The notes under the pieces: generated by a model | The model's database searches: none | What the model saw: only the letters and a program-made list of their open reading frames with translations | Told to the model about the DNA's origin: nothing | Assembly: GCF_058153355.1 (NCBI RefSeq) | Contig: NZ_CM177019.1 | Reading direction: 5' to 3' (one strand) | DNA length: 64,000 nucleotides | Translations under genes and position numbers: made by a program | Shown: piece after piece, positions 791 through 60,482 of the stretch | Layout: each line of letters begins with the position of its first letter | How positions within the stretch are numbered: the stretch's first letter is position 1

Positions 791-849
791 GGTAACCTCC
801 CGTGGAATAAGTTTGAAGGCGTTGTTGCCAGATGGCGGATGTTGTTATT

Positions 850-932
850 GCCTGATGCGATGCTGACGCATCTTACAAGGCCTACACGGCACTCGACCCG
901 TAGGCCGGATAAGGCGTTCGCGCCGCATCCGG
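850..932. repeat. REP/BIME pair between deoC and deoA
   Basis: Two inverted REP-type palindromes: GCCTGATGCGATGCTGACGCATCTTACAAGGCCTAC and GTAGGCCGGATAAGGCGTTCGCGCCGCATCCGG. Confidence 0.85.
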
Positions 933-957
933 AATCCACCCTCTGGCAAAAGGCAGC

Positions 958-1737: not shown

Positions 1738-1781
1738 TTCATTCTCCTGGCTTGTCGCCAATAAAATTCACCTTGCGAGTT

Positions 1782-1797
1782 TGTTAGTATTCTAACA
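1782..1797. promoter_or_regulatory. DeoR operator (deoP2-proximal)
   Basis: TGTTAGTATTCTAACA, a near-perfect copy of the 16-bp DeoR palindrome TGTTAGAATTCTAACA. It lies 45 bp upstream of the deoC ATG. Confidence 0.8.
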
Positions 1798-1995
1798 TCG
1801 ACTCCGCAACACACTTCGATATACATCACAATTAAGGAAATCTACTTACAAAATTGCATTACTGTAATGCGATCTGGTTCAAATAATTCACTTTCAAATG
1901 AATGCGTCAGTGGTGGCAAACGCATCAGGATCAAAGTGAACATCACGAAACTTCTTACAATGGCGCATCACCTTCGGCATAAAAAGGAACAGAAG

Positions 1996-3546
1996 ATGCC
2001 CACTTCTCATGAAAATGCACTGCAACAACGTTGCCAGCAAATTGTCACCAGTCCGGTACTTAGCCCGGAGCAGAAGCGCCATTTTCTGGCGCTGGAAGCA
2101 GAAAACAATCTGCCTTACCCACAGCTTCCTGCCGAAGCCCGCCGCGCGCTGGATGAAGGTGTAATCTGCGATATGTTTGAAGGTCATGCGCCGTATAAAC
2201 CGCGCTATGTCTTACCCGATTACGCCCGTTTTTTGGCCAACGGTTCCGAATGGCTGGAGCTGGAAGGCGCAAAAGATCTTGATGACGCACTCTCTCTGCT
2301 GACCATTCTTTACCACCACGTTCCTTCGGTCACATCGATGCCGGTCTACCTGGGGCAACTGGATGCGTTGTTGCAACCGTATGTTAGAATTCTAACACAA
2401 AACGAGATCGATATTCGAATAAAACGTTTCTGGCGTTACCTCGACAGAACCCTGCCAGACGCCTTTATGCACGCCAATATTGGCCCATCTGATTCACCCA
2501 TTACCCGTGCGATTTTACGCGCAGACGCAGAGCTGAAGCAGGTTTCACCGAACCTGACTTTTATCTACGATCCTGAAATCACCCCTGATGACCTGCTGCT
2601 GGAAGTGGCGAAAAACATCTGTGAATGTAGCAAACCGCACATCGCCAACGGTCCCGTGCATGATAAAATTTTCACAAAAGGGGGCTACGGGATTGTGAGC
2701 TGTTACAACTCACTGCCGTTAGCGGGTGGTGGCAGTACGCTGGTACGCCTTAACCTGAAAGCCATTGCCGAGCGCAGTGAATCGCTGGATGATTTCTTTA
2801 CGCGCACTCTACCGCACTACTGCCAGCAGCAAATCGCCATCATCGATGCGCGGTGTGAATTCCTCTATCAACAATCACACTTCTTTGAGAATAGCTTCCT
2901 GGTGAAAGAAGGGCTGATTAACCCTGAACGTTTTGTGCCAATGTTTGGCATGTACGGACTGGCAGAAGCGGTTAACTTGTTGTGTGAGAAAGAAGGAATT
3001 GCCGCACGTTACGGTAAAGAAGCCGCTGCGAATGAAGTGGGTTATCGCATTAGCGCGCAACTGGCGGAGTTTGTCGCCAATACCCCCGTGAAATATGGCT
3101 GGCAAAATCGCGCCATGCTACACGCACAGTCGGGGATAAGTTCCGATATCGGCACCACGCCGGGCGCGCGTTTGCCGTATGGCGATGAGCCAGATCCGAT
3201 CACCCATCTGCAAACTGTCGCCCCGCATCATGCTTATTATTATTCCGGCATCAGCGACATTTTGACGCTCGACGAAACCATCAAACGTAATCCGCAGGCG
3301 CTGGTACAGCTTTGCCTCGGTGCCTTTAAAGCCGGAATGCGTGAATTTACCGCCAATGTCAGCGGTAACGATCTGGTTCGCGTTACCGGTTATATGGTGC
3401 GTTTGTCGGATTTAGAAAAATATCGTGCCGAAGGTTCACGTACCAATACCACCTGGCTGGGAGAAGAAGCCGCACGCAACACTCGTATTCTGGAACGCCA
3501 GCCGCGCGTGATAAGCCATGAACAGCAGATGCGCTTTAGTCAGTAA
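1996..3546 (+). CDS. yjjI: glycyl-radical-enzyme-like protein YjjI (DUF3029), function unknown
   Basis: 516-aa form from ATG 1996 ([15 protein letters not shown]...). C-terminal RVTGY motif ([10 protein letters not shown]) of glycyl-radical type. Followed by an overlapping activase gene. Confidence 0.9.
2382..2397. promoter_or_regulatory. DeoR operator (deoP1 region) inside the yjjI coding sequence
   Basis: Perfect palindrome TGTTAGAATTCTAACA exactly 600 bp from the 1782..1797 copy. This matches the known ~600-bp spacing of the deo O1/O2 operators. Confidence 0.8.
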
Positions 3547-4381
3547 GATTATCCCCTTCTCCTGCGTTGACGGGCCAGGCAGTCGTCTGGCTCTGTTTTT
3601 ACAGGGCTGTAATCTGCGCTGCAAAAACTGTCACAATCCGTGGACAATGGGGCGCTGTAATGATTGCGGGGAGTGCGTGCCACAGTGTCCGCATCAGGCG
3701 TTGCAGATTGTTAACAGCAAAGTAGTGTGGAACGCAGCCGTCTGCGAGCAGTGTGATACCTGCCTGAAGATGTGTCCACAACACGCTACGCCGATGGCGC
3801 AATCCATGAACGTGGACGAGGTGCTTAGTCACGTCCGCAAAGCGGTGCTGTTTATTGAAGGGATAACGGTAAGCGGCGGTGAAGCCACGACCCAGTTGCC
3901 GTTTGTGGTGGCGCTGTTTACTGCTATCAAAAATGATCCACAACTGTGTCATCTCACCTGTCTGGTGGACAGTAACGGCATGTTGAGCGAAACCGGCTGG
4001 GAAAAATTACTCCCAGTGTGCGACGGCGCGATGCTCGACCTCAAAGCGTGGGGTGGCGCGTGTCATCAACAGCTAACCGGACGCGATAATCAGCAGATCA
4101 AGCGCAGCATTAGTCTGCTTGCCGAGCGCGGCAAACTGGCAGAACTGCGTTTGCTGGTAATCCCAGGCCACGTGGATTATTTGCAGCATATCGATGAGCT
4201 GGCGGCGTTTATCAAGGGACTTGGCGATGTTCCGGTACGCCTGAACGCGTTTCATGCCCACGGCGTGTATGGCGAGGCGCAAAGCTGGGCGAGCGCCACG
4301 CCGCAAGACGTTGAGCAATTGGCTGATGCGTTACGGGAGCGCGGGGTGAGCCGGTTGATATTTCCGGCGCTGTATTTGTGA
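3518..4381 (+). CDS. yjjW: radical-SAM glycyl-radical activating enzyme
   Basis: CNLRCKNC (CxxxCxxC) radical-SAM motif plus two ferredoxin-like Cys clusters. Overlaps the yjjI stop by 29 nt. Confidence 0.9.
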
Positions 4382-4384
4382 CAT

Positions 4385-4500
4385 GCCGGATGTGGCCTAC
4401 GGTTCGGCACAGACCTGTAGGCATGATAAGACGCGTCAGCGTCGCATCAGGCATTGTGCGCCAACTGCCGGATGCGGCGTGAACGCCTTATCCGGCCTAC
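4385..4500. repeat. REP/BIME cluster between yjjW and yjjV
   Basis: Three REP-like units, e.g. CTGTAGGCATGATAAGACGCGTCAGCGTCGCATCAGGC and TGCCGGATGCGGCGTGAACGCCTTATCCGGCCTAC. Confidence 0.85.
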
Positions 4501-4510
4501 GAAGGGCAGA

Positions 4511-5293
4511 CTACCCACGAACGTTAAACACCGCATACGTGTTATTAAGCAACACTTCGGCAATCTCATCCGCGGGTTCCGGGCGTAACTCGCACAGCAC
4601 GGCAAACACACGGGCGGCCTGTTCAGGGCGATTAGGCTGCCCCTGAAAACCATTGAGCGGCATATCTGGTGCGTCGGTCTCCAGCAACAACGATGCCAGC
4701 GGCAGCTTTGCGATGACATCGCGGGTTTTACTGGCGCGTGGATAGGTGATAGTACCGCCTACGCCAATTTTGTAGCCCAGCTGCACAAACCGTTCGGCCT
4801 GTTGCAGGCTGCCAGAAAAACCATGAACCACACCAGTGCGTGGCAAATTTTGGCGTTTAAGATGCATCGCCAGTTTGTCGTGCGTGCGCCGTGAATGAAG
4901 GATCACCGGCAGATCGTAGCGTTTCGCCAGTTTCAGTTGTTCATCAAGCAACCACTGCTGCCTCTCAAATTGCGGATCGTCACCAAAGAGATCCAGGCCG
5001 ATCTCCCCCACCGCCACCACCTTCGTCGGACGTCTTCCCAACGCCTGCTGTAACTGATCCAGCGATGCATCGTTATGTTTTTCCAACATCCCCGGATGCA
5101 ACCCTAAAGCGGCATACAGCGGTTGATAATTTTCCGCTAACGCCTGCACGCGGGCAAAATTTGCCGCCTCGGTGGCCGGAACAATGATCTTGCCTACGCC
5201 CGCTTGTGCCGCGCGTTGCAGGCTGGCCTCTTCATCGCCACTAAACGGCGGGAAATCAAAATGGCAGTGGGTGTCGATAAAACGGCAAATCAA
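4511..5293 (-). CDS. yjjV: TatD-family metal-dependent hydrolase/DNase
   Basis: N-terminal FIDTHCHFDF motif and TatD-like length. Overlaps the yjjU stop by 4 nt. Confidence 0.9.
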   Translation of the reverse strand: MICRFIDTHCHFDFPPFSGDEEASLQRAAQAGVGKIIVPATEAANFARVQALAENYQPLYAALGLHPGMLEKHNDASLDQLQQALGRRPTKVVAVGEIGLDLFGDDPQFERQQWLLDEQLKLAKRYDLPVILHSRRTHDKLAMHLKRQNLPRTGVVHGFSGSLQQAERFVQLGYKIGVGGTITYPRASKTRDVIAKLPLASLLLETDAPDMPLNGFQGQPNRPEQAARVFAVLCELRPEPADEIAEVLLNNTYAVFNVRG

Positions 5294-6363
5294 GCCAAAT
5301 CCTCATTGTTAAATGTCGGGTCGTTCGCCTGTGGAGCGTCTATCACCTCGGTAACCAGCGTATCGTTGGCGACGGGTGCAGGCGGAATAACGATCGACTC
5401 CGGCGTCACCACCGGCACCAGATGGCGGCTCAGCGGCGCTTTTTCAGTCAATAACTTACCGACCGTTGCCAGAAAATAACGCCCGCATAAACGCCCAAGT
5501 TTATAGTCTTCACGCAGCGCCGGAATCCGACTGCCGAGCGCGATACTATGTAATGGCTTCGGCGGATAAATTTCGAATATCCTCAACTGGCCCGGTGGTT
5601 TCTCAATAAATTGCTGAATCTCACGATAGCTGGTTTCATGATGCTGCACCAGATTGACCAGCGGCTGCAGGCTACTGTCACCCAGCCAGCGTTCCATGCG
5701 TTTGAACCACTGCGGCGTGTAGTACATTTGTGACGGCACAGTGCGGATGACGACTAACGTTTTTGCGCCCTGCCTTGCTGCCTCTTTAACCGGGATCGCA
5801 TCACTGATCCCGCCATCCAGGTAATTAATGCCTTCCAGCGACACTCCGCTACGATAAAAGCCCGGTATCGCACTGGAGGCGCGAATCACATCCAGCCAGT
5901 TCTGTTTGTTTGGCAAAAAGTAATTCGGCGCATAGTCATCCTGACGACAAGCGCACATATAAAACGATTTGCCGCTGTCAAATAGCCGCGCTGCGGTGTC
6001 CATTTGCAACGGCATCTGGCTTGCGGTGGCCTCCACCAGCCAGTCGAGATCGATAAGATTTCCTCCACGGACAAAGCGCAATGGATCGAAAAATTCGCGT
6101 TTTGTGGTATAGCGCATGATGACTTTGCGCGCGTAACCGGGCTGATTGCAGATATACGCCGAGAGGTTCTGCGCCCCGGCAGATGTGCCGAGATAAAGAT
6201 CGAAAGGATTAAACTGCGCGCGCATAAACTCATCCAGCACGCCAGCTGTGAAAATTCCACGCTGTCCGCCGCCTTCGCACACCAGAGCAATCCGTCCAGG
6301 CTGGAACGGCCTTAGCGACAACGGCGCAATATTACCAAGCGTTACAGGTATTCGCTGCCCCAC
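5290..6363 (-). CDS. yjjU: patatin-like phospholipase
   Basis: CEGGGQRG oxyanion motif and GTSAG nucleophile elbow. The 357-aa form from GTG 6363 (VGQRIPVTLGN) fits K-12 YjjU. The track ORF extends to 6399. Confidence 0.85.
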   Translation of the reverse strand: MGQRIPVTLGNIAPLSLRPFQPGRIALVCEGGGQRGIFTAGVLDEFMRAQFNPFDLYLGTSAGAQNLSAYICNQPGYARKVIMRYTTKREFFDPLRFVRGGNLIDLDWLVEATASQMPLQMDTAARLFDSGKSFYMCACRQDDYAPNYFLPNKQNWLDVIRASSAIPGFYRSGVSLEGINYLDGGISDAIPVKEAARQGAKTLVVIRTVPSQMYYTPQWFKRMERWLGDSSLQPLVNLVQHHETSYREIQQFIEKPPGQLRIFEIYPPKPLHSIALGSRIPALREDYKLGRLCGRYFLATVGKLLTEKAPLSRHLVPVVTPESIVIPPAPVANDTLVTEVIDAPQANDPTFNNEDLA

Positions 6364-6426
6364 CTCTGCCTTCCTGTTTTTGTTGTGAAAGAATGACAAA
6401 GTAACGCAATTTATTATTCGCTAAAA

Positions 6427-6455
6427 CCACAAAAGCCAGTCCGTTGGACTGGCTT
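6427..6455 (-). terminator. rho-independent terminator after ytjA
   Basis: Minus strand: AGCCAGTCC-AACG-GGACTGGCT followed by TTTTGTGG. Confidence 0.7.
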
Positions 6456-6484
6456 TGGATAAAATTTTCTTAATGGTCTGAAAT

Positions 6485-6646
6485 CTAGGGTCGTTTTCGG
6501 CCCATGAACAAACTCACCAGGAACAGAATAATCCCGACGACAAAGACAATTTTAGCTGCGCCTGCAGCAGTACCGGCCAGACCACCAAACCCAAGTGCGG
6601 CGGCAATTAACGCGATAACCAGAAATATGATGCCCCAACGAAACAT
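6485..6646 (-). CDS. ytjA: small membrane protein (53 aa)
   Basis: [53 protein letters not shown], two hydrophobic helices. Internal ATG of track ORF 6485..6676. Confidence 0.85.
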
Positions 6647-6772
6647 AAGCGTCTCCTTTACCATAGTTAATGTCACCGCTTGATATGAGCGTGAAAATCA
6701 CTCAATGCGATATTTTTAGTGTGGTGCACATCGCGCCTCCCGACAAAGTTCGGGAGGTCGAATTACGACGAA

Positions 6773-7378
6773 TTACTTAGTTTTCAGATCATTTTTAACG
6801 CTTTTCACACCATCTACCGCTTTGGCGATACTTTCAGCACGGTCGCTCTGTGCCTGAGAATCTACGGTACCGGAGAGCTGAACCACACCATCGGTGGTTT
6901 CAACTTTCACTTTACGTGAAGGGACGATATCGTCCGCCAGCAGCTTGGCTTTGATTTCACTGGTGGTGGCGGTGTCACCCGCGTAGCCCTTCACAGAGCC
7001 TTCTTTAGCGTCGCGAACGTGCAGTTTGTCGCTGACAGAGGTCACGCCTTCAACGCCTTTCGCCACTTTCACTGCCTCTTCGGCCTGGGCCTGGCTTTCA
7101 ACGAAACCGCTCAGGGTCACGACTTTTTGATCGGTTTTGACAGAGATATCGGTGCTCTTGATGTTGTCATGATCCACCAGGGCCGCCTTCACTTTCGCGG
7201 TGATAGCGCTGTCATCCATGAAATTACCGACTTTATTCATAGAGCTATCGACTTTTTGCCCTGCACTTTCATTGGTTGTCTGCGCGTTGTTTTCTGCGTA
7301 GGCAGAGCCGGTCGCGACGGCAGAGGTCAACATTACAGCCAGCAGAGTTTTCGAAATCTTCAGTCTTGTCATAGTCAT
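6773..7378 (-). CDS. osmY: periplasmic osmotically inducible protein (two BON domains)
   Basis: 201-aa form [28 protein letters not shown] (signal peptide) followed by a duplicated BON-like repeat (..[12 protein letters not shown].. / ..[12 protein letters not shown]..). Confidence 0.95.
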
Positions 7379-7770
7379 CGATTTATTCCTGTATGTTTGC
7401 TCGTAATTTGAGCCTGGCAACACGAGGTTGCATTGCTGAATAGGGAGAGGCTTCACCCTCTACAGAAGTCAATGGTCGCTATCACAAAAGCGATGGCTGA
7501 TGAATAACGACCATTACAGCCTCTGAATCAGTTATTAATATCGGTAGAATGACAATCGACGGCTTTAGATACTGATATCTACGCATTGAACGGTATTTAA
7601 CGCCGTCAGAAATGTCATTACTTTGTTAAATATAGATCACAATTTTGAAACCGCTCGGGATATCCCCTAAAACATAAGCAAAAGTGAATGTTTTAAGAAC
7701 ATTCCGTAAGCGGCTAATAAGGAAGGGAAATTGACAGGGCGCAGCGGCTACCGCGCCCTGGAGGCAAGAA

Positions 7771-9357
7771 TTAATGCTCGCGAGTCTGGTGGAACTGAAC
7801 GTCCGGATAACGTTCCTGCGCCAGGCGCAGGTTGACCATGCTGGTAGCGATGTAAGCGAGGTTATCGCCGCCATCAAGCGCCAGTTGGCTTTCGTTCTTA
7901 CGCTTGAACTCTTCGAATTTCTTCGCGTCCGCACATTCTACCCAGCGTGCAGTGGCAACGTTGACTGACTCATACACTGCTTCAACGTTGTATTCGCTCT
8001 TCAGGCGCGCTACCACCACATCAAACTGCAGCACACCAACCGCACCAACGATCAGGTCGTTGTTGGAGATCGGACGGAACACCTGCACCGCGCCCTCTTC
8101 GGAAAGCTGTACCAGCCCTTTGAGCAGCTGTTTTTGCTTCAGCGGATCTTTCAGGCGGATACGACGGAACAGTTCCGGCGCAAAGTTCGGAATACCGGTG
8201 AACTTCATCATCTCCCCCTGGGTAAAGGTGTCGCCGATCTGAATAGTGCCGTGGTTGTGCAGACCAAGGATGTCGCCCGGATACGCTTCCTCAACATGCG
8301 AACGGTCGCCCGCCATAAAGGTCAGCGCGTCGGAGATCACCACATCTTTCGCGGTGCGCACCTGGCGCAGCTTCATGCCTTTTTCATATTTACCGGATAC
8401 CACGCGCATAAACGCCACGCGGTCGCGGTGTTTCGGGTCCATGTTGGCCTGAATTTTAAATACGAAGCCGGTAAATTTATCTTCGCTCGCCTCTACGGTA
8501 CGGGTATCAGTCTGACGCGGCATCGGCGCAGGTGCCCACTCTACCAGGCCATCCAGCATATGATCGACGCCGAAGTTACCCAGCGCAGTACCAAAGAACA
8601 CTGGAGTAATTTCGCCCGCAAGGAACAATTCTTTGTCGAACTCGTTAGACGCGCCTTTCACCAGTTCCAGTTCGTCACGCAGCTGCTGTGCCAGATCTTC
8701 ACCAACCGCAGCATCGAGATCCGGGTTATTCAGCCCTTTAACAATACGGACTTCCTGAATGGTGTGACCTTTACCGCTCTGATAGAGATAGGTTTCGTCT
8801 TTATAAAGGTGGTAAACGCCTTTAAACAGCTTGCCGCAGCCAATCGGCCAGGTGATCGGCGCACAGCCGATTTTCAGCTCGTTCTCAACTTCATCGAGCA
8901 GCTCCATCGGGTCGCGGATATCACGGTCAAGTTTGTTCATAAAGGTGAGGATCGGCGTGTCGCGCAGACGGGTAACTTCCATCAGCTTGCGGGTACGATC
9001 TTCAACACCTTTTGCGGCGTCGATAACCATCAGGCAGCAGTCCACCGCCGTCAGAGTACGATAGGTATCTTCCGAGAAGTCTTCGTGCCCCGGGGTGTCG
9101 AGCAGGTTAACCAGGCAGTCGTGATACGGAAACTGCATCACAGACGTAGTAATGGAGATCCCACGCTGCTTTTCCATCTCCATCCAGTCCGACTTAGCGT
9201 GCTGGTTGGAACCACGGCCTTTTACTGTACCGGCAGTCTGAATGGCCTGTCCGAACAGCAGCACCTTCTCGGTGATGGTCGTTTTACCGGCGTCCGGGTG
9301 AGAAATAATTGCAAAGGTTCTTCTTTTCGCTACCTCTGCGGCCAAAAGGCTTGTCAT
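7771..9357 (-). CDS. prfC: peptide chain release factor 3; the first ~21 codons are prophage-derived
   Basis: GTPase motifs [12 protein letters not shown] and DTPGH. ATG at 9357..9355 gives [21 protein letters not shown]. The alternative native 5' end is at 48849..48913 (see findings). Confidence 0.95.
9296..9309. repeat. attL core
   Basis: GGGTGAGAAATAAT, identical to 48849..48862. Imperfect extension ([T/G]GCAAA[G/A]G). Lies in prfC codons for AIISHP. Confidence 0.8.
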
Positions 9358-37024: not shown

Positions 37025-37420
37025 TTACCGAGTTGCTAATTTGCAACTCGCTTTTTCGTACTTACTGATAGTGATCTCGACCTTCCCTTCCGGGATAACC
37101 GGTCCCCACTCCACCAGCATTCTTTTCACCTGACTGTCGTCTTCCCACACACCCGCGTGGGTCAGAGCGTCAAACAGCGCCTTGTTATAGTTGTCCAGAT
37201 CGCGGATCCGGTTATCCGGAGGAAACAACACGATCTCCACTGAAGCAGGTGCCGACGTTGGTTTCGGCAGACGACGTAACTGCTCAACTATTGCTGCGCA
37301 CGCCGCGCTCTGGAATTTGCGCCCCGCCGCGCTTATCAGGCTTTTACCAGCAAACGCCCCTTTGTTAGGGTGTCGCCAGTACGTATTCACGCTGGGCGGG
37401 AAAGGCAGGATCAGTTTCAT
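37025..37420 (-). CDS. rusA: RusA-family Holliday junction resolvase
   Basis: 131 aa. LPFPPSVNTYW...RDLDNYNKALFDALTHAGVWEDDSQV, typical of RusA. Confidence 0.85.
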   Translation of the reverse strand: MKLILPFPPSVNTYWRHPNKGAFAGKSLISAAGRKFQSAACAAIVEQLRRLPKPTSAPASVEIVLFPPDNRIRDLDNYNKALFDALTHAGVWEDDSQVKRMLVEWGPVIPEGKVEITISKYEKASCKLATR

Positions 37421-37743
37421 ACTTTCAGGCCTCTCTCATGTAACCAGTGGGTTGCACGCAGCCTTGCGTTTTCCTCACCGGCAAGCAGTGAGCGGATAAT
37501 CCCGACAGCCTCGCTGTCGTCGTCCTTCACCGCGGTATGAAGCGTTATCCCCCGGGCCACGCCACGCTTTATCGTGATGACGCCTTTTTTCTCCAGTGCG
37601 CGAAGATGCTCCACCGCTGCATTCACTGAACGGTATCCCAGCATGGTTGCCACCTCCTGATTGGTTGGCGGGAAGCCACGTTCTTTCTGGTAAGAAATCA
37701 GCATATCCAGCACCTGCTGCTGGCATTGAGTTAATGTCGTCAT
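37417..37743 (-). CDS. LexA N-terminal DNA-binding-domain protein lacking the S24 peptidase domain
   Basis: 108 aa. LTQCQQQVLDMLISYQKERGFPPTNQEVATMLGYRSVNAAVEHLRALEKKGVITIKRGVARGITL aligns with LexA residues ~4-69. The 40-aa tail is unrelated. Confidence 0.8.
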   Translation of the reverse strand: MTTLTQCQQQVLDMLISYQKERGFPPTNQEVATMLGYRSVNAAVEHLRALEKKGVITIKRGVARGITLHTAVKDDDSEAVGIIRSLLAGEENARLRATHWLHERGLKV

Positions 37744-38393
37744 GCCGCCATCTCCCTGACCAGTTTTTCCGCCTGCTGGCGAACCTGCGCCAGAAAGGCC
37801 TCACCACATGCCTCAAGTTCATCGCGCCCGATGTAGCTGATTGCCGGTCCCTTCCAGGTCTTGTCGAAAACAACAATAGCACCAGCGAAGAAAGCGCCTG
37901 TCGGCACCTGCTTCTCGTCCTTCGGTATAAACCAGGCAGGCAGTTCAAAACCAATACGCCCGCGAATAAAAGCAATATGATCTGCATCTTCCGGCCACCA
38001 CACTTCGCTGGTGGCAGCTTTGATCAGGAAAACATAGCGCCCGCCTTTATCACGCATGGCACTGGCATGTTTCATGATGTAACGCATGCCGGTGATGTAT
38101 TGCCCCTCATGCTGACTGGCGCGGCTGTATGGGGGATTACCAAAGGCAGCACCTTTAAGCTCCGCAAGACGTTCTGACCAGTCATGCGCCAGCGCGTTGT
38201 CTTCCGCCGTGTAATACGCGGCACATTTGGCGTTATCACCGTCAGTGAACAGATCCAGAACAAACGGACCAAACAAGGTGTTAATTCCCCAGAAAATGTT
38301 GTCCGGCGTGCGCCACTGATCGCCCACTTCCTTCAGTTCATGGGCTGGTTTGTTCCGCAGTTCTACCAGCGCCTGGCAATATTTATTACTCAT
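37740..38393 (-). CDS. phage Dam-type N6-adenine DNA methyltransferase
   Basis: 217 aa. FGNPPYS catalytic motif. Size and N-terminus (WRTPDNIF) typical of the phage N6A-MTase family. Confidence 0.75.
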   Translation of the reverse strand: MSNKYCQALVELRNKPAHELKEVGDQWRTPDNIFWGINTLFGPFVLDLFTDGDNAKCAAYYTAEDNALAHDWSERLAELKGAAFGNPPYSRASQHEGQYITGMRYIMKHASAMRDKGGRYVFLIKAATSEVWWPEDADHIAFIRGRIGFELPAWFIPKDEKQVPTGAFFAGAIVVFDKTWKGPAISYIGRDELEACGEAFLAQVRQQAEKLVREMAA

Positions 38394-38485
38394 TAAGCCC
38401 CCACGTAAAAAGCATCCGCAATGTCTCCGGAAGTACAGCCCGGATGGGCTTCAATGAATTTCTGAACGTCATTTAACAGACTCAT
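38393..38485 (-). CDS. 30-aa ORF translationally coupled between the O-like and Dam genes
   Basis: ATG 2 nt after the O-like TGA, and its TAA overlaps the Dam ATG (TAATG). MSLLNDVQKFIEAHPGCTSGDIADAFYVGA. Confidence 0.4.
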   Translation of the reverse strand: MSLLNDVQKFIEAHPGCTSGDIADAFYVGA

Positions 38486-38487
38486 GA

Positions 38488-39480
38488 TCACCCCCTGAAT
38501 CCTGCCGGGATCTGGCTGTAGTCCACGTTGTCGTAACTGGCTTTGAAGTACGGGTCTTCACGTTTTTCTGTGTGCGTGCTGACGGACGGCGATAAGCGCA
38601 GGGAAAGCTCATCCCATTTTTCCCGCAACTTCGACGGGCTGAGCACGTTACGGCACCAGAACGGATCGCGGCTGACGCGGCTGTACATCTCGCAGATTTG
38701 TTTGTGAGTACGACCATCCTGCACACACATCAGGCGAATTTCGTTTGCCCATGCTGTCCAGTTCGGTTCTTTGGGACGAACCACCTCGCCGTCACATTCG
38801 GCGGCCTGCTCGTACAGGGCGATGATTTTTTTCCAGAGCCACTGTGCGCAGGTCAAATCATCCTGCGTTCCCCACTGGCGCTTTTTAGGGCTGAATACAA
38901 CCGCATCAGGATGGCGAGTTAAAAACTCCTGTTCAGCCGTTTGCGTGTCCGGTTGCGAAGCGTCCGGACGAGAAGAGGTTTTATTCTCTGTAGTAATCTC
39001 TGTTGTATTCTCTGTAAGATCATTGGGCCATTTTGACCCGATGACAGCGTGTCGTTTTGAACCAATGGATCGTGTCATTTTGCGCCCATCCATCAGGTCA
39101 CTTTGACCCGATGGAGAAGTGCATTTTGACCTGATGGATTCGTTCACTTTGACCTCTTCTAAAAGCTCACTTTCATAGTTGATCGTGTAGAAGTTGGTCA
39201 TGTCACGCTTCGATTTATTGAGTTGCTCGCGACGCAAAACCCCAAGTGATTTCAAGCTTGCAAATGTGCGTTTCAGAGTGGACTCTGACCAGAACGGAAA
39301 CTGCTCCAGCCACTGTTCTGTCGTGTTATAAACCCAGCGAATTCCGCCATGCTCTGTGCCTGAATTCGTTTCATTCAGCCAGTAATGAAGCTGCTGCAAC
39401 ACAATTGCCTCATTCAGACCAATACGGCATGCAAGATCACGATTTATCACAATGGGCTGGGATGTCATTAACAGGCTCAT
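38488..39480 (-). CDS. replication initiation protein (O-like) containing the origin iterons
   Basis: 330 aa. N-terminal wHTH-like region, an internal repeat-encoded linker and a conserved C-terminal domain. Position after the CII-like genes. Confidence 0.75.
   Translation of the reverse strand: MSLLMTSQPIVINRDLACRIGLNEAIVLQQLHYWLNETNSGTEHGGIRWVYNTTEQWLEQFPFWSESTLKRTFASLKSLGVLRREQLNKSKRDMTNFYTINYESELLEEVKVNESIRSKCTSPSGQSDLMDGRKMTRSIGSKRHAVIGSKWPNDLTENTTEITTENKTSSRPDASQPDTQTAEQEFLTRHPDAVVFSPKKRQWGTQDDLTCAQWLWKKIIALYEQAAECDGEVVRPKEPNWTAWANEIRLMCVQDGRTHKQICEMYSRVSRDPFWCRNVLSPSKLREKWDELSLRLSPSVSTHTEKREDPYFKASYDNVDYSQIPAGFRG
39028..39160. repeat. origin iterons inside the O-like gene
   Basis: Five to six copies of CA(T/C)TTTGACC(C/T)GATGG-like units at about 23-bp spacing (39028, 39053, 39076, 39098, 39121, 39144), followed by an AT-rich stretch. 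Confidence 0.75.
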
Positions 39481-39649
39481 GACCGACCTCTATTTCCCTG
39501 AATTTACGACGAAACTGTTCGAGCGGACTGAAGCATTCATGTTCATAGCCTTCACGGAGGTAGATAACCCGTTGTGTTTCCGGCTCCCAACGAATGACTC
39601 TGACGGGCACTCCGTAGTGATCTTTGAACCAGCGGTTAACTTGTCGCAA
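39437..39649 (-). CDS. small protein (70 aa, DUF4222-like)
   Basis: [40 protein letters not shown]... Overlaps the 39490..39828 ORF in another frame. Confidence 0.5.
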
Positions 39650-39828
39650 AGGACTGTCTCCTTCTGCCGGTTGAAATCACCCACAGCCCACTCTGCAAAG
39701 CTGTGGGTTACAATTTCCCTGTCACCTGGTACATTCACTGCATAGCAATACTCCACCTTCGCTTTTCCACCCGGTACAGGAAGCGCAATCAGTTGCGAGC
39801 GACGGTAGTGTGTTGTTAAACTGTTCAT
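39490..39828 (-). CDS. YmfM-like hypothetical protein (112 aa; 3' part doubtful)
   Basis: Same size and position as e14 ymfM (after the ymfL-like gene). The 3' 160 nt overlap another plausible ORF. Confidence 0.45.
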
Positions 39829-40659: not shown

Positions 40660-40770
40660 TCTGTAAGTAGTAAAGTTGTTGATAACTTCGATTATACAAC
40701 TACAACAACTTTTATTACAACTTTTAGATGTTGGAAAGCTAAAACATAAAGTTGTAACCTCAATAAAAAC
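40660..40770. promoter_or_regulatory. OR-like operator/promoter region (PR toward cro, PRM toward cI)
   Basis: Repeated AAGTTGT/ACAACTT half-sites. Minus-strand TTGTAA-N18-TATAAT (TATAAT = revcomp of 40691..40696). Shares the blocks ACATAAAGTTGT and ATTACAACTT(T/A)(T/A)AGATGTTG with 41655..41710. Confidence 0.7.
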
Positions 40771-42680: not shown

Positions 42681-42727
42681 GCGGTACCAGTTTGTACACT
42701 TGCTTCCGGCTGGTACCGCTCTTTTTA
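42681..42727 (+). terminator. intrinsic terminator within the early-left operon
   Basis: GCGGTACCAG (42681..42690) / CTGGTACCGC (42710..42719), a perfect 10-bp stem with a 19-nt loop, followed by TCTTTTTAC. Confidence 0.7.
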
Positions 42728-42815
42728 CAAAACAGAGAAGGGCATCACCGGACGACGGGCTCATAACCCAATCCATCCGGGCGGCTGCCACCGCAGGTGT
42801 TCTTCTCTGTTTTGT
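42727..42815 (+). ncRNA. candidate structured RNA element (14-bp long-range stem enclosing sub-hairpins)
   Basis: ACAAAACAGAGAAG (42727..42740) is the exact reverse complement of CTTCTCTGTTTTGT (42802..42815). Internal CCGGA/TCCGG and GCGG/CCGC stems. No credible ORF. Confidence 0.35.
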
Positions 42816-42863
42816 GGAGAAACCAACCGACCTTGCAGGGTCGATATGATGAGGAGCAGCAAA

Positions 42864-43226
42864 ATGGCTAGCGAACGCAGTACTGATGTGCAGGCATTTA
42901 TCGGGGAGCTGGACGGCGGCGTATTTGAAACCAAAATCGGCGCAGTTCTCAGTGAAGTCGCTTCCGGTGTGATGAACACGAAAACCAAAGGTAAGGTCTC
43001 GCTCAACCTGGAAATCGAACCATTTGATGAGAACCGTGTGAAAATCAAACACAAACTCTCATATGTTCGCCCGACTAACCGCGGGAAAATTTCCGAAGAA
43101 GACACCACCGAAACACCGATGTATGTCAATCGCGGTGGTCGCCTGACTATTCTGCAGGAAGACCAGGGACAATTACTGACTCTTGCCGGTGAACCTGACG
43201 GAAAACTACGCGCAGCAGGTCATTAA
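42864..43226 (+). CDS. YfdP-like hypothetical protein (120 aa)
   Basis: ATG 42864 with GAGGAG 7 nt upstream. The track ORF 42546..43226 is an implausible N-terminal extension through the structured region. Confidence 0.65.
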   Translation: MASERSTDVQAFIGELDGGVFETKIGAVLSEVASGVMNTKTKGKVSLNLEIEPFDENRVKIKHKLSYVRPTNRGKISEEDTTETPMYVNRGGRLTILQEDQGQLLTLAGEPDGKLRAAGH

Positions 43227-43291
43227 TATCGTTCTTAATTAACTGATTATTTATCTCATCACTGAATATCTTTATATAGTGAGGACTTATT

Positions 43292-44116
43292 ATGTCTCAG
43301 AACTTAGACGCAACCGCAATTAATCAAATCCATGCCCTTATTTCTGCTCAGGGTGTTAATGAAATTATTAGTAAGATTGGTGCCGATGCTGTGGCATTGC
43401 CTGAGAATTTCCGCATTCATGATCTGGAAAAATTTAATTTAAATCGCTTCCGTTTCCGTGGTGCGCTTTCCACTGCCAGCATCGATGACTTTACCCGTTA
43501 TTCTAAAGATCTTGCAGATGAAGGCACCCGCTGCTTTATCGATGCCGATAATATGCGTGCCGTCAGTGTGCTTAACCTGGGTACTATTGATGAACCAGGT
43601 CACGCAGATAACACCGCCACTCTCAAACTGAAAAAGACAGCACCGTTCTCTGCTCTGTTGTCTGTTAATGGCGAGCGTAACTCCCAAAAGTCACTGGCAG
43701 AATGGATTGAAGACTGGGCCGACTACCTTGTGGGCTTTGATGCTAATGGTGACGCCATTCAGGCAACCAAAGCGGCTGCGGCGATCCGTAAAATCACAAT
43801 TGAAGCGAACCAGACCGCTGATTTTGAAGACAATGACTTCAGCGGCAAACGCTCCCTGATGGAGTCTGTCGAAGCGAAGACCAAAGACATTATGCCAGTG
43901 GCATTTGAATTTAAATGCGTTCCGTTTGAAGGCCTGAAAGAACGTCCGTTTAAATTACGCCTCAGCATTATCACTGGCGATCGTCCTGTACTGGTTCTGC
44001 GCATTATTCAGCTGGAAGCGGTGCAGGAAGAAATGGCTAACGAATTTCGTGATCTGCTTGTTGAGAAATTTAAAGACAGCAAAGTAGAAACCTTTATTGG
44101 TACTTTCACCGCCTGA
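43292..44116 (+). CDS. DUF2303 / YfdQ-like protein
   Basis: 274 aa. Gene order P-Q-R-S as in the CPS-53 yfdPQRS cluster (from memory). Confidence 0.65.
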
Positions 44117-44128
44117 TTTCATTACTGC

Positions 44129-44152
44129 AAATGCCCCTGCGGGGGCATTTAT
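44129..44152 (+). terminator. hairpin after the yfdQ-like gene
   Basis: AATGCCCC-TGCG-GGGGCATT followed by TATGG. The U-tract is weak. Confidence 0.4.
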
Positions 44153-44243
44153 GGAAACATAATTTACTCAATAATCGCCGGATGGTGAGGGCTTCCTTTT
44201 ACCAGAATTCAGCGCGGTGCAGCGCATATACGTGGAGAACAAA

Positions 44244-44780
44244 ATGTCATTTATTAAAACTTTTTCCGGGAAGCATTTTTATTATGACAAGATAAATAAA
44301 GACGACATCGTTATTAACGATATCGCGGTTTCCCTTTCAAATATCTGTCGCTTTGCAGGGCATCTTTCACACTTCTACAGCGTCGCCCAACATGCGGTGC
44401 TTTGCAGCCAGCTGGTACCGCAGGAATTTGCTTTTGAAGCGTTAATGCATGATGCAACAGAAGCATATTGCCAGGACATCCCCGCACCACTGAAACGACT
44501 TCTTCCTGACTATAAACGGATGGAAGAAAAAATAGACGCCGCAATCCGTGAGAAATACGGGTTACCCCCAGTTGTGAGTACGCCCGTGAAATATGCCGAT
44601 CTCATCATGCTGGCAACCGAACGCCGCGATCTCGGGCTTGATGATGGCTCTTTCTGGCCTGTACTGGAAGGCATCCCGGCAACAGAGATGTTCAACGTGA
44701 TTCCACTGGCACCGGGTCATGCCTACGGGATGTTTATGGAACGTTTTAACGATTTATCGGAGTTACGCAAATGCGCATGA
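44244..44780 (+). CDS. HD-domain 5'-deoxynucleotidase (YfdR-like)
   Basis: Start MSFIKTFSGKHFYY. HD motif residues (...VAQHAV..., ...ALMHDATEAY...). The track ORF starts at 44217. Confidence 0.7.
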   Translation: MSFIKTFSGKHFYYDKINKDDIVINDIAVSLSNICRFAGHLSHFYSVAQHAVLCSQLVPQEFAFEALMHDATEAYCQDIPAPLKRLLPDYKRMEEKIDAAIREKYGLPPVVSTPVKYADLIMLATERRDLGLDDGSFWPVLEGIPATEMFNVIPLAPGHAYGMFMERFNDLSELRKCA

Positions 44781-51711: not shown

Positions 51712-51772
51712 AAAACCTGCAAGTTAGCCCTGTCGGGTAGCAGCGATTCATTACTGTCTCGCCGCCCCCTAA

Positions 51773-51806
51773 GAACGGTACGTGCGAGTTTCCCCGCATA
51801 CCGCTC
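51773..51806 (-). ncRNA. group II intron domain V
   Basis: GAGCGGTATGCGGGGAAACTCGCACGTACCGTTC: AGC triad, GAAA tetraloop and a compensatory C>G/G>C swap relative to the canonical GAGCCGUAUGCG...CGCACGUACGGUUC. Confidence 0.85.
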
Positions 51807-51812
51807 AAGCCT

Positions 51813-53492
51813 TTATAAGCCTCCACCTTGTGGGAGACCAGCGTCATTACTATGTAGTTGTCGATGGCAGTTGGGATGGAGTAGGACTAAATTGCTCACA
51901 TCATCGCTACCGCCAAGAGATTTCTTGAGCAAATGATGAACATTCCATCCTGTATCGCGATTAATCGGTTGCTCACATAAAGGGCAGCGCGATCCTTGCC
52001 TTTTCCATATAGCGAGAATCCTTTTCTGCCCCTGTTGGGATTTCTTCCATGAGTAGTCCAGCCTTCTTTCGAAGTATGTTTCCCACTCGGGATCATATGG
52101 ATTTGCCGTTCCCTTTATTTTTATATAGCGATTAATATGGATGTCGCTGGCCCGGGACAGAACATATTTCCTACCCTCCGGATCGACTCCATAAAATCGA
52201 CCATGACACATTTTTATTGTCGTGTGGTACTTTCGGAAGATCCATCTCCGGCCTTTGCCGGGATGTCTCCTTCTGCACCACTGCCAGATTTTGCGCCAGA
52301 TTTGGTTGTCGACATAGTTAAATGTCTCTGCCGATGCTACATGTTGGTGATAGTTTGCCCACCCGGTGATGATTGGATTAAGCAGATTTATTAGCACCCA
52401 TGCAGGAACCGTTCGGTTACCTTCAATAGTCTCTCTGATCTTGCTAAGAAATTGTTTAACGTTTTTCTTGGCTGGTCTGATTATGAGTTTTCTACCGAAG
52501 CGTCGGACGTGCTGCCCAAGGAAATCAAATCCGTCAGTAATGTGAGTGATGACCGTTTTCTCTTCGGATAACGTCAGCCCTCTTTCTGCAAGAAATGATT
52601 TCACCAACGGAAGAACATTCTCCTCCAGAAGTTCTTTCGACTTTCCGGAAATGATGAAATCATCAGCATACCGGACGAAGTGAACCTGATGTTTCCTGAA
52701 TGTTTTTGAGCGTTTCGGACCAAAGCGATTTTGCAGCAGTCTTTCCAGTCCATCCAGGGCCATGTTTGCCAGAACTGGAGATATGATTCCTCCCTGGGGT
52801 GTACCCGAGAGAGTTTTGCTGAATATGCTTTTTTCGATGATCCCGGCTTTCAACCAATTACGGAGTATTTGCTTGTCCATAGGAATATTTTCAAGCAGCC
52901 ACTCGTGGCTAATGTGTTCAAAGCATCCTTTAATATCGCCTTCCAGAACCCATTTCGAGGCGTTCCGGGAACTATACATATTACATACCTGTTGAATGGC
53001 GTCAGCCGTACATCGCGCTGGTCTGAAACCATAACTGTTGTGATCTGCATTAGTTTCCGATACAGGCTCCAATCCCAGCAGATGCAGGGCCTGCATTGCC
53101 CTGTCAAGCATGACGGGGATTCCTAATGGTCTTTTCTTGCCATTAGATTTGGGTATAAAAACTCTTTTTAGCGGTAGGGGCTTGTACCCTTTTCGCCTGA
53201 GTTTGAATATCGCTTCCCATTTTGATTCTGGAGTACTCCAGATTTGACCATCAACTCCGGGGGTTTTACGCCCGCTATTTTCCGTAACTCGTTTCACCGC
53301 CAGTGCTCTGGCGCTGAATGAGCGAACCAGCAATCGTTGCAATCTACCGACTGTACGCCATTGCTGGTTACATGCCGCCTTTGCGATTCTTGTCTGTATG
53401 GTTTTAACGTGTTGATGGCATTTCTTCCAGTTAATGGAATGCCAACCTTTTCCGTTGATGACCGCAGTTACATTGTTAGATGTAATTTTCAT
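51813..53492 (-). CDS. group II intron-encoded protein (RT, maturase X, DNA-binding and HNH endonuclease domains)
   Basis: RT motifs incl. FVRYADDFII. C-terminal HHLLKKSLGGSDDVSNLVLLHPNCHRQLH. Probable start MKITSNNV at 53492 (the track ORF extends to 53555). Confidence 0.9.
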   Translation of the reverse strand: MKITSNNVTAVINGKGWHSINWKKCHQHVKTIQTRIAKAACNQQWRTVGRLQRLLVRSFSARALAVKRVTENSGRKTPGVDGQIWSTPESKWEAIFKLRRKGYKPLPLKRVFIPKSNGKKRPLGIPVMLDRAMQALHLLGLEPVSETNADHNSYGFRPARCTADAIQQVCNMYSSRNASKWVLEGDIKGCFEHISHEWLLENIPMDKQILRNWLKAGIIEKSIFSKTLSGTPQGGIISPVLANMALDGLERLLQNRFGPKRSKTFRKHQVHFVRYADDFIISGKSKELLEENVLPLVKSFLAERGLTLSEEKTVITHITDGFDFLGQHVRRFGRKLIIRPAKKNVKQFLSKIRETIEGNRTVPAWVLINLLNPIITGWANYHQHVASAETFNYVDNQIWRKIWQWCRRRHPGKGRRWIFRKYHTTIKMCHGRFYGVDPEGRKYVLSRASDIHINRYIKIKGTANPYDPEWETYFERRLDYSWKKSQQGQKRILAIWKRQGSRCPLCEQPINRDTGWNVHHLLKKSLGGSDDVSNLVLLHPNCHRQLHSNDAGLPQGGGL

Positions 53493-54092
53493 ACATGTCA
53501 TCCAAAGAAACCTTCGCAGATGTTTCGCAATTAAAGACCAGATGGAAGTCAGCACGGTTTCCCGTTAAGGCAAATATTGAACCTCTATCCGCACGATTAC
53601 AGTCCGGCTTTCGCTTTTTCCATCCTCCTTTACCCGCATTCTCATCAGTTTGCCTTACGGTGCCCCTGCCACTAGGGCGAGAATTCGGGCTTACCAAGTT
53701 CCGACCAACATACAAAGAACGGGTTAGGTTCTGTCTATCCGCCGGGGGAGTTATTGTCCATGTATTCCCACTACGAACAGGAATAGCCTTACCCCTTACC
53801 TTTTGGTGCAAGCCTATCAGCATCTTTGGCTCGTTCTCTGTTACGACGTTTAACGACAGTTCACTATGTTAACCATACCGCCCAGCCTAGCGCTCTCGCC
53901 GCATGATGCTTGTAGCGATCAGGTTTTCTCACGATTAACTGAAGCAATATTTGCTAAGCTACATTGTCCCAAGGGCTTCAGACAGAGCCGTTACCAGCTT
54001 TGCCTGCCTCAGTAGGCTACAACTAATGGAATAGTTGGTTTTATATAAATAATTTATCAAAACAATATGTTGGACGACTTCTTGTCGCACTC

Positions 54093-54180
54093 GTAGGCCA
54101 GATAAGACGCGCCCGCGTCGCATCTGGCATCTGCACCCAAATACCGTGTCGGATGCGGCATGAACGCCTTATCCGACCTA
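54093..54180. repeat. two REP elements flanking the intron 5' side
   Basis: GTAGGCCAGATAAGACGCGCCCGCGTCGCATCTGGC (54093..54128) and GTCGGATGCGGCATGAACGCCTTATCCGACCTA (54148..54180). Confidence 0.8.
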
Positions 54181-54248
54181 TAAAACCTGCACGTTAGTTT
54201 CCTGATGGACATTTTTCCAGCAATTACACCTCCGTCGATAATTAACTA

Positions 54249-59202: not shown

Positions 59203-59742
59203 ATGTCTTCCAGAGTTTTGACCCCGGACGTCGTTGGTATTGACGCCCTGGTACACGATCACCAAACCGTTCTGGCAAAAGCTGAAGGCGGTGTGGTTGC
59301 CGTATTTGCTAACAATGCCCCGGCGTTTTATGCCGTCACGCCTGCGCGCCTGGCTGAACTGCTGGCGCTGGAAGAAAAGCTGGCGCGTCCAGGAAGCGAT
59401 GTCGCTCTGGACGATCAACTCTATCAGGAACCGCAAGCCGCTCCCGTTGCTGTACCCATGGGGAAATTCGCCATGTATCCGGACTGGCAACCCGATGCCG
59501 ACTTTATCCGCCTGGCGGCGCTATGGGGCGTGGCGCTAAAAGAGCCGGTGACCACCGAAGAACTGGCCTCATTCATTGCCTACTGGCAGGCGGAAGGTAA
59601 AGTCTTTCACCATGTACAGTGGCAACAAAAACTGGCGCGCAGCCTGCAAATCGGCCGTGCCAGCAACGGCGGACTGCCGAAACGAGATGTGAATACGGTC
59701 AGCGAACCTGACAGCCAAATTCCACCAGGATTCAGAGGGTAA
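59203..59742 (+). CDS. dnaT: primosomal protein DnaT
   Basis: 179-aa form [17 protein letters not shown]. Followed 2 nt later by dnaC. Confidence 0.9.
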
Positions 59743-59744
59743 CG

Positions 59745-60482
59745 ATGAAAAACGTTGGCGACCTGATGCAACGCCTGCAAAAAATGATGCCTGCCCATAT
59801 CAAACCCGCATTCAAAACGGGCGAAGAACTGCTGGCCTGGCAGAAAGAACAAGGGGCAATCCGCTCCGCCGCTCTCGAACGTGAAAACCGGGCGATGAAA
59901 ATGCAGCGCACCTTTAACCGCTCCGGTATTCGTCCACTGCATCAGAACTGCTCCTTTGAGAACTATCGCGTTGAGTGTGAAGGGCAGATGAATGCGTTAA
60001 GCAAAGCGCGCCAGTATGTCGAAGAGTTTGACGGCAACATCGCCAGCTTCATCTTTTCTGGCAAGCCAGGAACCGGCAAAAACCATCTGGCGGCGGCAAT
60101 CTGCAACGAGCTACTGCTACGCGGTAAATCCGTATTGATCATCACCGTGGCCGATATTATGTCGGCGATGAAAGATACCTTCAGGAATAGCGGTACCAGC
60201 GAAGAACAACTGCTTAACGATCTGAGCAACGTTGATCTGCTGGTGATCGATGAGATCGGTGTGCAGACCGAATCGAAATACGAAAAAGTGATCATCAACC
60301 AGATCGTCGATCGCCGCTCTTCTTCCAAACGCCCAACCGGAATGCTGACCAACAGTAATATGGAAGAGATGACCAAGTTGCTGGGCGAACGCGTGATGGA
60401 TCGTATGCGCCTGGGTAACAGTTTGTGGGTGATCTTCAACTGGGATAGCTACCGTAGCCGGGTAACGGGTAAAGAGTATTAA
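59745..60482 (+). CDS. dnaC: helicase loader DnaC
   Basis: 245 aa. Walker A GKPGTGKNHL and Walker B LLVIDEIG. Confidence 0.95.
   Translation: MKNVGDLMQRLQKMMPAHIKPAFKTGEELLAWQKEQGAIRSAALERENRAMKMQRTFNRSGIRPLHQNCSFENYRVECEGQMNALSKARQYVEEFDGNIASFIFSGKPGTGKNHLAAAICNELLLRGKSVLIITVADIMSAMKDTFRNSGTSEEQLLNDLSNVDLLVIDEIGVQTESKYEKVIINQIVDRRSSSKRPTGMLTNSNMEEMTKLLGERVMDRMRLGNSLWVIFNWDSYRSRVTGKEY

Follow-up and report, generated by a model that had tools for sequence, protein, structure and literature searches.

The origin of phage lambda lies inside the gene of its initiator, O, where iterons 20-24 bp apart occupy the linker-coding part of the gene and an AT-rich block follows downstream. Among lambdoid phages of Enterobacterales, 34 of 314 (~11%) encode only an O homologue, and this "O-only" replication has been described as "not yet understood" (Zheng et al. 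2025, PMC12315714). Here, we analyse a locus with both properties in a stretch of 64,000 nucleotides from NCBI RefSeq assembly GCF_058153355.1 (contig NZ_CM177019.1), called the window below, to which all coordinates refer. It contains a prophage whose O-like initiator gene (38488-39480, minus strand) harbours six iterons and an adjoining AT-rich block. Judged from sequence comparison, the repeats at 39029-39160 together with the AT-rich block are very probably the replication origin of the prophage, placed inside the linker-coding part of the initiator gene. As an origin it is unremarkable: another lambdoid ori within an O gene, of known design, in which the N-terminal domain and the iterons form a new pair. 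What makes the finding valuable is the question of the helicase loader, which the literature calls open and which is now testable by way of a DnaT-like tail on the initiator. The best explanation of the locus as a whole, to which we would give a probability of roughly 0.55, is an origin in the phage's only replication gene combined with an initiator tail that recruits host DnaB-DnaC.

The initiator gene encodes a protein of 330 aa which, as the preliminary description had proposed, is O-like: it matches PHROG 391, "replication initiation O-like" (E 1e-101), and is 98% identical to "Primosomal protein I" of phage mEp460_4F5. The kinship to lambda O resides in the C-terminal domain (aa 183-295; 38596-38934, minus strand), which shares 38% identity with the O proteins of lambda, 21 and Stx phages (tblastn, E 2e-17); a profile built from 128 family representatives matches aa 176-274 of lambda O (hmmsearch, E 1.8e-45). 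The likeness does not extend to the N-terminal domain, which belongs to another family. This domain (aa 1-~100; 39181-39480, minus strand) has the helix/strand pattern of a winged helix in an AlphaFold2 model with a pLDDT of ~70 and is presumed to bind the iterons. It gave no match to Phage_rep_O (PF04492) up to E 10, whereas Gifsy-2 O, used as control, does match. Further differences from lambda are six sites instead of four, the lack of a P gene, and the replacement of the lambda O tail ..NTDWIYGVDL by the DnaT-like tail. The order cro, cII, O is common to both.

No match was found for either initiator domain in Pfam (to E 10) or NCBIfam, and none among solved structures when these were searched by sequence with the initiator or with the C-terminal-domain profile. 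By structure, the best Foldseek matches of the N-terminal domain are 4pql and 5kbj, the N-terminal domain of a staphylococcal plasmid Rep, free and on DNA. This likeness in winged-helix fold is weak (E 0.03, prob 1.0, TM 0.56 on target) and was obtained with a query model of pLDDT only ~70. In sequence, the domain shares 41-45% identity with the N-terminal portions of proteins from Staphylococcus and Bacillus phages that carry the annotation "DnaD-like helicase loader". The repeats and the AT-rich block code for the linker (aa ~103-180), which is predicted to be disordered (AlphaFold2, pLDDT 26-31). Of 5426 complete E. coli genomes, 3572 contain at least the C-terminal part of the gene and 925 at least 80% of its length, in up to 7 places per genome. 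A widespread E. coli gene without any Pfam or NCBIfam model match, named "hypothetical protein" in RefSeq by the Prokaryotic Genome Annotation Pipeline (PGAP), thus represents a gap in annotation.

An iteron array and AT-rich block inside the initiator gene

Five to six repeats with a period of about 23 bp had been reported within the gene, and six copies of a 16-bp motif, 23-24 bp apart, were found. The motif reads CAYTTTGACCYGATGG on the plus strand and ccATCrGGTCAAArTG in gene orientation. Its copies start at plus-strand positions 39029, 39053, 39076, 39099, 39122 and 39145 (spacing 24, 23, 23, 23 and 23), and the cores, GGTCAAARTG in gene orientation, begin at nt 327, 350, 373, 396, 419 and 443 of the gene. 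Numbered in gene order, on the minus strand, iteron 1 (39145-39160) has the core GGTCAAAGTG at 39145-39154 and is degenerate in the half distal to it, and iterons 2 (39122-39137) and 3 (39099-39114) match the consensus perfectly. Iteron 4 (39076-39091) has a degenerate core, GCGCAAAATG, which is an intact GAGGTCAAAATG in the E. coli phage HannyBb. Iteron 5 (39053-39068), GTTCAAAACG, has three mismatches to the consensus, and iteron 6 (39029-39044) has a perfect core and one mismatch overall. An additional, inverted copy of the motif, matching on the minus strand at 39090-39105, overlaps iteron 4 and belongs to a perfect 13-bp inverted repeat (39088-39100 / 39127-39139, 13/13).

With up to three mismatches allowed, the 16-mer has eight matches on both strands of the window, five of them within the 133 bp of the array. 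Shuffled sequences gave 2.0 matches per whole window and none of 100 shuffles reached eight, so the clustering is far greater than chance would give. Tandem Repeats Finder (TRF) reports a period of 23 at 39098-39155 (2.5 copies, score 74). The AT-rich segment said to follow the repeats was confirmed, the 30% GC of 38980-39019 being the lowest value in the region. The block as a whole (38975-39027) is a candidate DNA-unwinding element with three 12-bp repeats, TACAGAGAATAM in gene orientation, for which TRF gives a 12-bp unit in 2.7 copies at 38985-39016. It lies downstream of the iterons in the direction of transcription, as in lambda.

Comparison with related phages adds further evidence for an origin. 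HannyBb, whose initiator is 71% identical, and Klebsiella phage MC05 both carry six cores in exact 23-bp register with spacers that vary, and ~47 bp of the AT-rich block are nearly invariant across the window and these two phages. Among 80 viral loci with a C-terminal domain 96-100% identical, three unrelated N-terminal domains occur, each with its own repeats at the same position; the three cassettes are referred to as the window type, the SfII type and the L015 type. The SfII-type cassette combines an HTH_36/DnaD_N-like domain with 15-bp TCTGACSCRTCAAAA repeats, and the L015 type has GGGAAAMC-like repeats; at L015 itself the same AT-rich block is retained beside this different iteron set. 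Four SfII-type initiators (L081, L022, L025 and L057) are 308, 313, 318 and 323 aa long and differ in steps of one 15-bp repeat (SDASK/SDTSK). Since these proteins differ by whole repeat units, iteron copy number appears to vary in natural populations.

A more distant comparison is offered by gp55 of Staphylococcus phage Sebago (L412:1810-1885). Its N-terminal domain shares 43% identity with the one in the prophage initiator and is directly followed, inside the gene, by TGTATCAAAATGATACGA repeats at 22-23 bp. The remainder of the protein is unlike the initiator: its C-terminal half differs, it is without a DnaT-like tail, and the gene precedes those of a helicase loader and a DnaB-like helicase. 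Sebago shares both the domain and the TCAAAATG core, which has thus stayed with the N-terminal domain across phyla despite unrelated linker peptides. These observations support the prediction that the repeats are binding sites of the N-terminal domain. The iterons span nt 327-452 of the gene, compared with nt 349-433 of O for the four iterons of lambda. The earlier statement that lambda ori has the same design was thus upheld on every computable point, that is, the PHROG 391 match, the O-type C-terminal domain, the position of the iterons, the AT-rich block and the change of the repeats with the N-terminal domain. In the literature searched, nothing usable was found on "initiator-solo" origins or on descriptions of the SfV/SfII origin, and no mention was found of O-only iteron sets, of their covariation with the N-terminal domain or of a DnaT-like tail. 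Weigel and Seitz (2006) are said to classify such modules.

The reading frames of the array bear on whether the repeats act as DNA at all. The six cores fall in codon phases 2, 1, 0, 2, 1 and 1. As a period of 23 bp is no multiple of 3 and the cores are read in all three phases, the linker peptide is no true repeat; the preliminary description was right in placing the repeats in the linker-coding part of the gene and wrong in calling the linker itself repetitive. One DNA word kept in three reading frames argues that the repeat was selected as DNA and not as peptide. By this analysis, the proposal that the repeats are a by-product of a repetitive protein linker, without a function as DNA, is close to refuted. 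It could appeal to the SfII-type repeats, which have a period divisible by 3, 15 bp, and encode a recurring SD(P/A)SK peptide. It fails to account for the three-frame core of the window, for a repeat sequence that changes with the N-terminal domain and not with the neighbours of the linker, or for the same core in a Staphylococcus phage with an unrelated linker peptide.

A DNA function need not be that of an active origin. The repeats might be bound by O in autoregulation, exclusion or copy control, or be what is left of a once-active origin as the prophage decays; a working origin, if there is one, would then lie elsewhere. A 396-bp deletion lies directly downstream of the gene, many E. coli genomes carry the gene in part (3572 with a match, 925 with at least 80%), and plasmid iterons also act in copy control, all of which would fit such a role. 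We nevertheless regard it as very unlikely, as the same arrangement is present in viable phages, including SfII, mEp460_4F5 and HannyBb, the gene is intact, the AT-rich block is conserved and no second iteron cluster was seen elsewhere in the initiator gene.

A DnaT-like tail on an initiator without a loader gene

The preliminary description had pointed out that no P/DnaC-like or helicase gene follows the initiator, and this is borne out. When lambda P and a second P homologue, along with DnaC and DnaB of E. coli, were used as tblastn queries, no homologue was found in the prophage, and the sole match in the window was the host dnaC at 59745-60479. The same searches found none in the whole SfII genome, and neither helicase, loader nor primase is among the genes that PGAP annotates for a copy in strain 13E0780 (99.8% identical). 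With the O homologue as sole replication gene, the locus fits the O-only definition. It is a member of the class that includes LLS, mEp460_4F5, SfII and SfIV, with the same operon and likewise without helicase or loader; LLS, a relative of mEp460_4F5, is reported to have an O homologue only (PMC12315714).

What the initiator does carry is the C-terminal tail of DnaT. The tail (aa 299-330; 38491-38586, minus strand) is predicted to be flexible, and its last nine residues, SQIPAGFRG (38491-38517), are identical at 8 of 9 positions to the end of E. coli DnaT, SQIPPGFRG (BLASTP). The corresponding match to DnaT is 14/20 for the HannyBb-type tail and 13/19 for the Gifsy-2 type. Across 108 orthologues of DnaT (71-98% identity), conservation reaches 98% or more at six of the seven IPxGFRG positions, a level equal to that of the folded domain, and the conserved pattern of the DnaT tail, ..PD..IPxGFRG, is present on the initiator. 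Outside the tail no similarity to DnaT was detected by BLASTP: the N-terminal oligomerisation domain and the acidic PriB-binding linker were not matched, and the three-helix domain that binds single-stranded DNA (ssDNA; PF17948) has no detectable similarity in the initiator. The two proteins thus have the tail in common and differ in how they would be targeted, the initiator by predicted sequence-specific DNA binding and not by PriA and PriB. The loading pathway had been called unclear, and the literature likewise regards it as open; the tail of DnaT on the initiator now gives it a lead.

The tail is not confined to one kind of initiator. It is found with four C-terminal domains, namely the lambda-O type, the cdtI orf46 type, the MC05 type (likened to Phg_2220_C by eye) and the Gifsy-2 type. 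Within the lambda-O-type family, ~20 of 150 cluster representatives carry it and the rest end in NTDW, WNSxEAW or other tails. Two variants may be mentioned. A family representative of 347 aa (P0184) has two tail motifs, ..DYSIPKGFRG.. and a terminal ..ETEIPHGFRG. A Klebsiella-type initiator (L318:6959-8125) ends in ..DSIPRGFVGNKN, a degenerate and extended tail that may be a variant tolerating extra C-terminal residues; no loader homologue was found near it.

The type of tail was found to go with the type of loader. Among 176 distinct viral loci with the DnaT-like tail, comprising 96 of the SfII type, 13 of the window type and 67 of a Klebsiella phage type with another N-terminal domain, none has a homologue of P, DnaC or DnaB in its flanks by tblastn (at least 2.5 kb downstream and up to 6-7 kb per side, and the whole genome for SfII). 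Loci with other tails carry a lambda P homologue in 61 of 73 cases. At one of these (L091), the C-terminal domain is 66% identical to that of the window, the tail is HWNSAEAWENTL and the next gene is a Phage_lambda_P (PF06992, E 3e-64). For a lambda-like tail on an SfII-like protein (P0128), the locus search gave SfII-type loci only.

A third arrangement is seen in Gifsy-2, whose O homologue has a PF04492 N-terminal domain and, at its end, RDVNHISAPDKTIPTGFRG, which agrees with DnaT at 13 of 19 positions (E 3e-6); directly after it comes a DnaC homologue that shares 49% identity with host DnaC. In the 80 loci with a DnaC of this type, the tail is present on 71 of 74 upstream initiators, which have at least three types of N-terminal domain. 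The modules of Gifsy-2 and phi80 type resemble the prophage locus in having an iteron-like repetitive linker and the DnaT-like tail on the initiator. They differ in both the N- and C-terminal domains and in carrying a DnaC homologue of their own, where this prophage would use that of the host. In an Stx2d phage that served as negative control, the O gene stands before a distant DnaC-like ATPase (32% identity) and the phage's own DnaB-like helicase, and the DnaT-like tail is absent.

In the host itself dnaT is directly upstream of dnaC, and the Gifsy-2-type modules are like this operon in that a tail-bearing gene directly precedes dnaC. The dnaC of Enterobacterales is considered a domesticated phage gene acquired within this taxonomic order (PMC5109545), and the hosts identified for tail-bearing O-only phages all belong to genera of Enterobacterales (Escherichia, Shigella and Klebsiella). 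Read most simply, these distributions suggest that the tail of an O-type initiator acts as an adaptor specific to one loader, the DnaT type being paired with DnaC. On that reading, the O-only phages would use host DnaC-DnaB.

Helicase recruitment and the explanations weighed

Under the explanation that we prefer for the locus, transcription from a pR-like promoter would make the initiator and cross the origin. The N-terminal winged-helix domain would bind the six iterons to form a complex like the lambda O-some, and the adjoining AT-rich block of 12-mers would open. The initiator itself would then recruit host DnaB-DnaC through its flexible DnaT-like tail, since the phage is without a P, DnaC or helicase gene. 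The tail may be a docking peptide for DnaC or the DnaC-DnaB complex, so that the initiator at a sequence-defined origin would do the job that DnaT does at restarted forks. For this step from tail to DnaC, as suggested by the distribution of tails and loaders, we put the chances at slightly under even. A wider proposal, made tentatively, is that the DnaT tail ..PD..IPxGFRG acts as a docking peptide, transferable between proteins, through which host DnaT, Gifsy-2-type initiators and O-only initiators alike would engage DnaC or DnaC-DnaB.

A precedent for the joining of O and DnaT parts exists in DopC of Cellvibrionales and Oceanospirillales (Brezellec et al. 2017, PMC5509034), which is O-like and combines an N-terminal HTH domain with a DnaT-derived C-terminal element. 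DopC is unlike the present initiator in that it has a folded DnaT C-terminal domain (HHpred against 2ru8), no iterons and a P partner; here there is the tail only, and no P.

Several points weigh against recruitment through the tail. The link between tail and DnaC is one of co-occurrence, and the 176 loci are far from independent because they represent about three lineages, searched over flanks of 6-7 kb and over the whole genome for SfII only. A preprimosome study of 2026 suggests the N-terminal domain of DnaT, absent from the initiator, as the recruiter of DnaB/DnaC (PMC13377028). Removal of DnaT residues 154-179 was reported only to weaken ssDNA binding about twofold (PMC4132743), and the partner of the tail could be PriA, PriB, PriC or ssDNA instead. 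In addition, the prophage may not be fully functional, as a deletion adjoins the initiator gene. The literature describes both the structure of DnaT 154-179 and the recruitment of DnaB/DnaC by DnaT as unknown (PMC4132743, PMC13377028, PMC13220808).

One may instead envisage recruitment of the PriA-PriB-DnaT restart primosome to the same origin, by the DnaT-like tail or by the C-terminal domain, with host DnaT then delivering DnaB-DnaC as it does for ColE1/pBR322 and phiX174. Restart would take as its substrate the opened origin, a D-loop of recombination or an R-loop that pR transcription leaves behind. Within the preprimosome, DnaT uses its C-terminal domain to dock on PriA and its linker to dock on PriB (PMC13377028). 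The origin is transcribed through, and recombination intermediates could supply restart substrates; the O-only phage LLS is without recombination genes of its own, and the title of the study describing it concerns recombination-dependent growth (PMC12315714). The contact with PriA, however, uses the folded DnaT C-terminal domain, to which the initiator has no detectable similarity, and this route leaves unexplained both the tail upstream of phage DnaC in 71 of 74 Gifsy-2-type modules and its absence where a P homologue is present. We consider it unlikely.

Loading could also proceed as in the iteron plasmids pSC101, R6K and RK2, with the C-terminal domain contacting DnaB and/or working with host DnaA. 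The tail would then be irrelevant to loading and might be, for example, an ssDNA-binding or regulatory appendage. Plasmid initiators normally work without a loader gene of their own, and the N-terminal domain resembles that of a plasmid Rep, in the weak Foldseek match. The effect of the DnaT 154-179 truncation on ssDNA binding (PMC4132743) would suit such an appendage, and the prophage encodes a YfdR whose K-12 homologue binds DnaA (PMC4776307). Against this, no consensus DnaA box was found within 9 kb of the origin, C-terminal domains of lambda type normally act via P, and the strict partition of tails and loaders would have to be a coincidence. Loading of this kind is rather improbable in our view.

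The DnaT-like tail matters beyond this prophage. Helicase loading by O-only lambdoid phages becomes directly testable, and so does the handover of the restart primosome to DnaB-DnaC by DnaT, which recent structural papers call unknown. Since the tail is absent with a P loader and present with a DnaC loader, a peptide of 7-9 residues is available as a handle. If this reading is true, the NTDW, WNSxEAW and DRSDWVDE tails of O-type initiators would go with P, and the dnaT-dnaC operon of the host may have come jointly from a phage module of "initiator plus DnaC".

Prophage setting and early operon

The prophage is SfII/mEp460-like and occupies ~39.5 kb of the window (~9337-48849); its head and tail genes are 97% identical to those of Shigella phage SfII. 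Host DNA is found on either side, at 1-9337 (deoA to prfC) and from 48849 onward. At the two ends of the prophage the K-12 coordinates overlap, at the prfC/yjjG junction, by ~41 bp, apparently the att duplication. The host parts are 95-96.5% identical to K-12, a value that we take to be low for E. coli and that may indicate a divergent lineage of Escherichia. A stretch of ~2.4 kb (51735-54183), with rsmC on one side and the leuQPV tRNA genes on the other, is absent from K-12.

The host dnaT-dnaC operon lies on the plus strand at 59203-60482 (tblastn against K-12, DnaT 99.4% and DnaC 100% identity), so that it and a prophage initiator with a DnaT-like tail are ~20 kb apart in one window. This nearness is probably due to chance, because a 99.8% identical prophage gene lies close to a dusA remnant in another strain.

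Upstream of cro, a pR-like promoter (40691-40720, minus strand) has 10 of 12 consensus matches. The leftward early operon that starts from it contains cro, a cII-like gene, a DUF4222/ymfM-like gene and the initiator. As the operon driven by this promoter includes the initiator gene, transcription crosses the origin. The order of these genes is common to mEp460_4F5, SfII, SfIV and other viable phages. Within the operon, two minus-strand open reading frames (ORFs) overlap in different frames and both have family matches: 39437-39649, annotated by PGAP, matches DUF4222 (E 1.5e-18), and 39490-39828, annotated in the SfII record, matches PHROG 1170 over its full length (E 1e-69). Possible explanations are an artefact of annotation in one of the two, a frameshift or a fusion.

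On the 3' side of the initiator follow, in order, a 32-aa remnant, Dam, a protein with a LexA DNA-binding domain, RusA, KilA-N, DUF968 and Q. Of the two neighbouring genes named earlier, the Dam-type N6-adenine methyltransferase (37740-38393, minus strand) is confirmed as the next intact gene downstream (PF05869, E 7e-46). The supposed 30-aa ORF is instead a 32-aa remnant of a PerC-like activator gene (38393-38491, minus strand), matching PHROG 1324/23071 at the N-terminus only, and stands outside the replication machinery. The full-length PerC-like gene encodes 162 aa in mEp460_4F5 and SfII, and the remnant was left by the 396-bp deletion, as measured against mEp460_4F5 and L001 (L001:4094-4582). 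The annotation of strain 13E0780 treats the same remnant as an incomplete pseudogene.

Homologues of yfdP, yfdQ and yfdR, genes of CPS-53, lie in the leftward early region at 42681-44763 (e.g. 43292-44116). For K-12 YfdR, binding to DnaA and, on overexpression, inhibition of initiation at oriC have been reported (PMC4776307); the yfdR-like gene hints at an interplay of the prophage with host initiation. Finally, the gene at 37417-37743 encodes a protein of 108 aa that consists of the LexA DNA-binding domain alone (PF01726, E 3e-19), without a peptidase domain. It is conserved at the same operon in SfII, mEp460 and cdtI, and its product might compete at SOS boxes.

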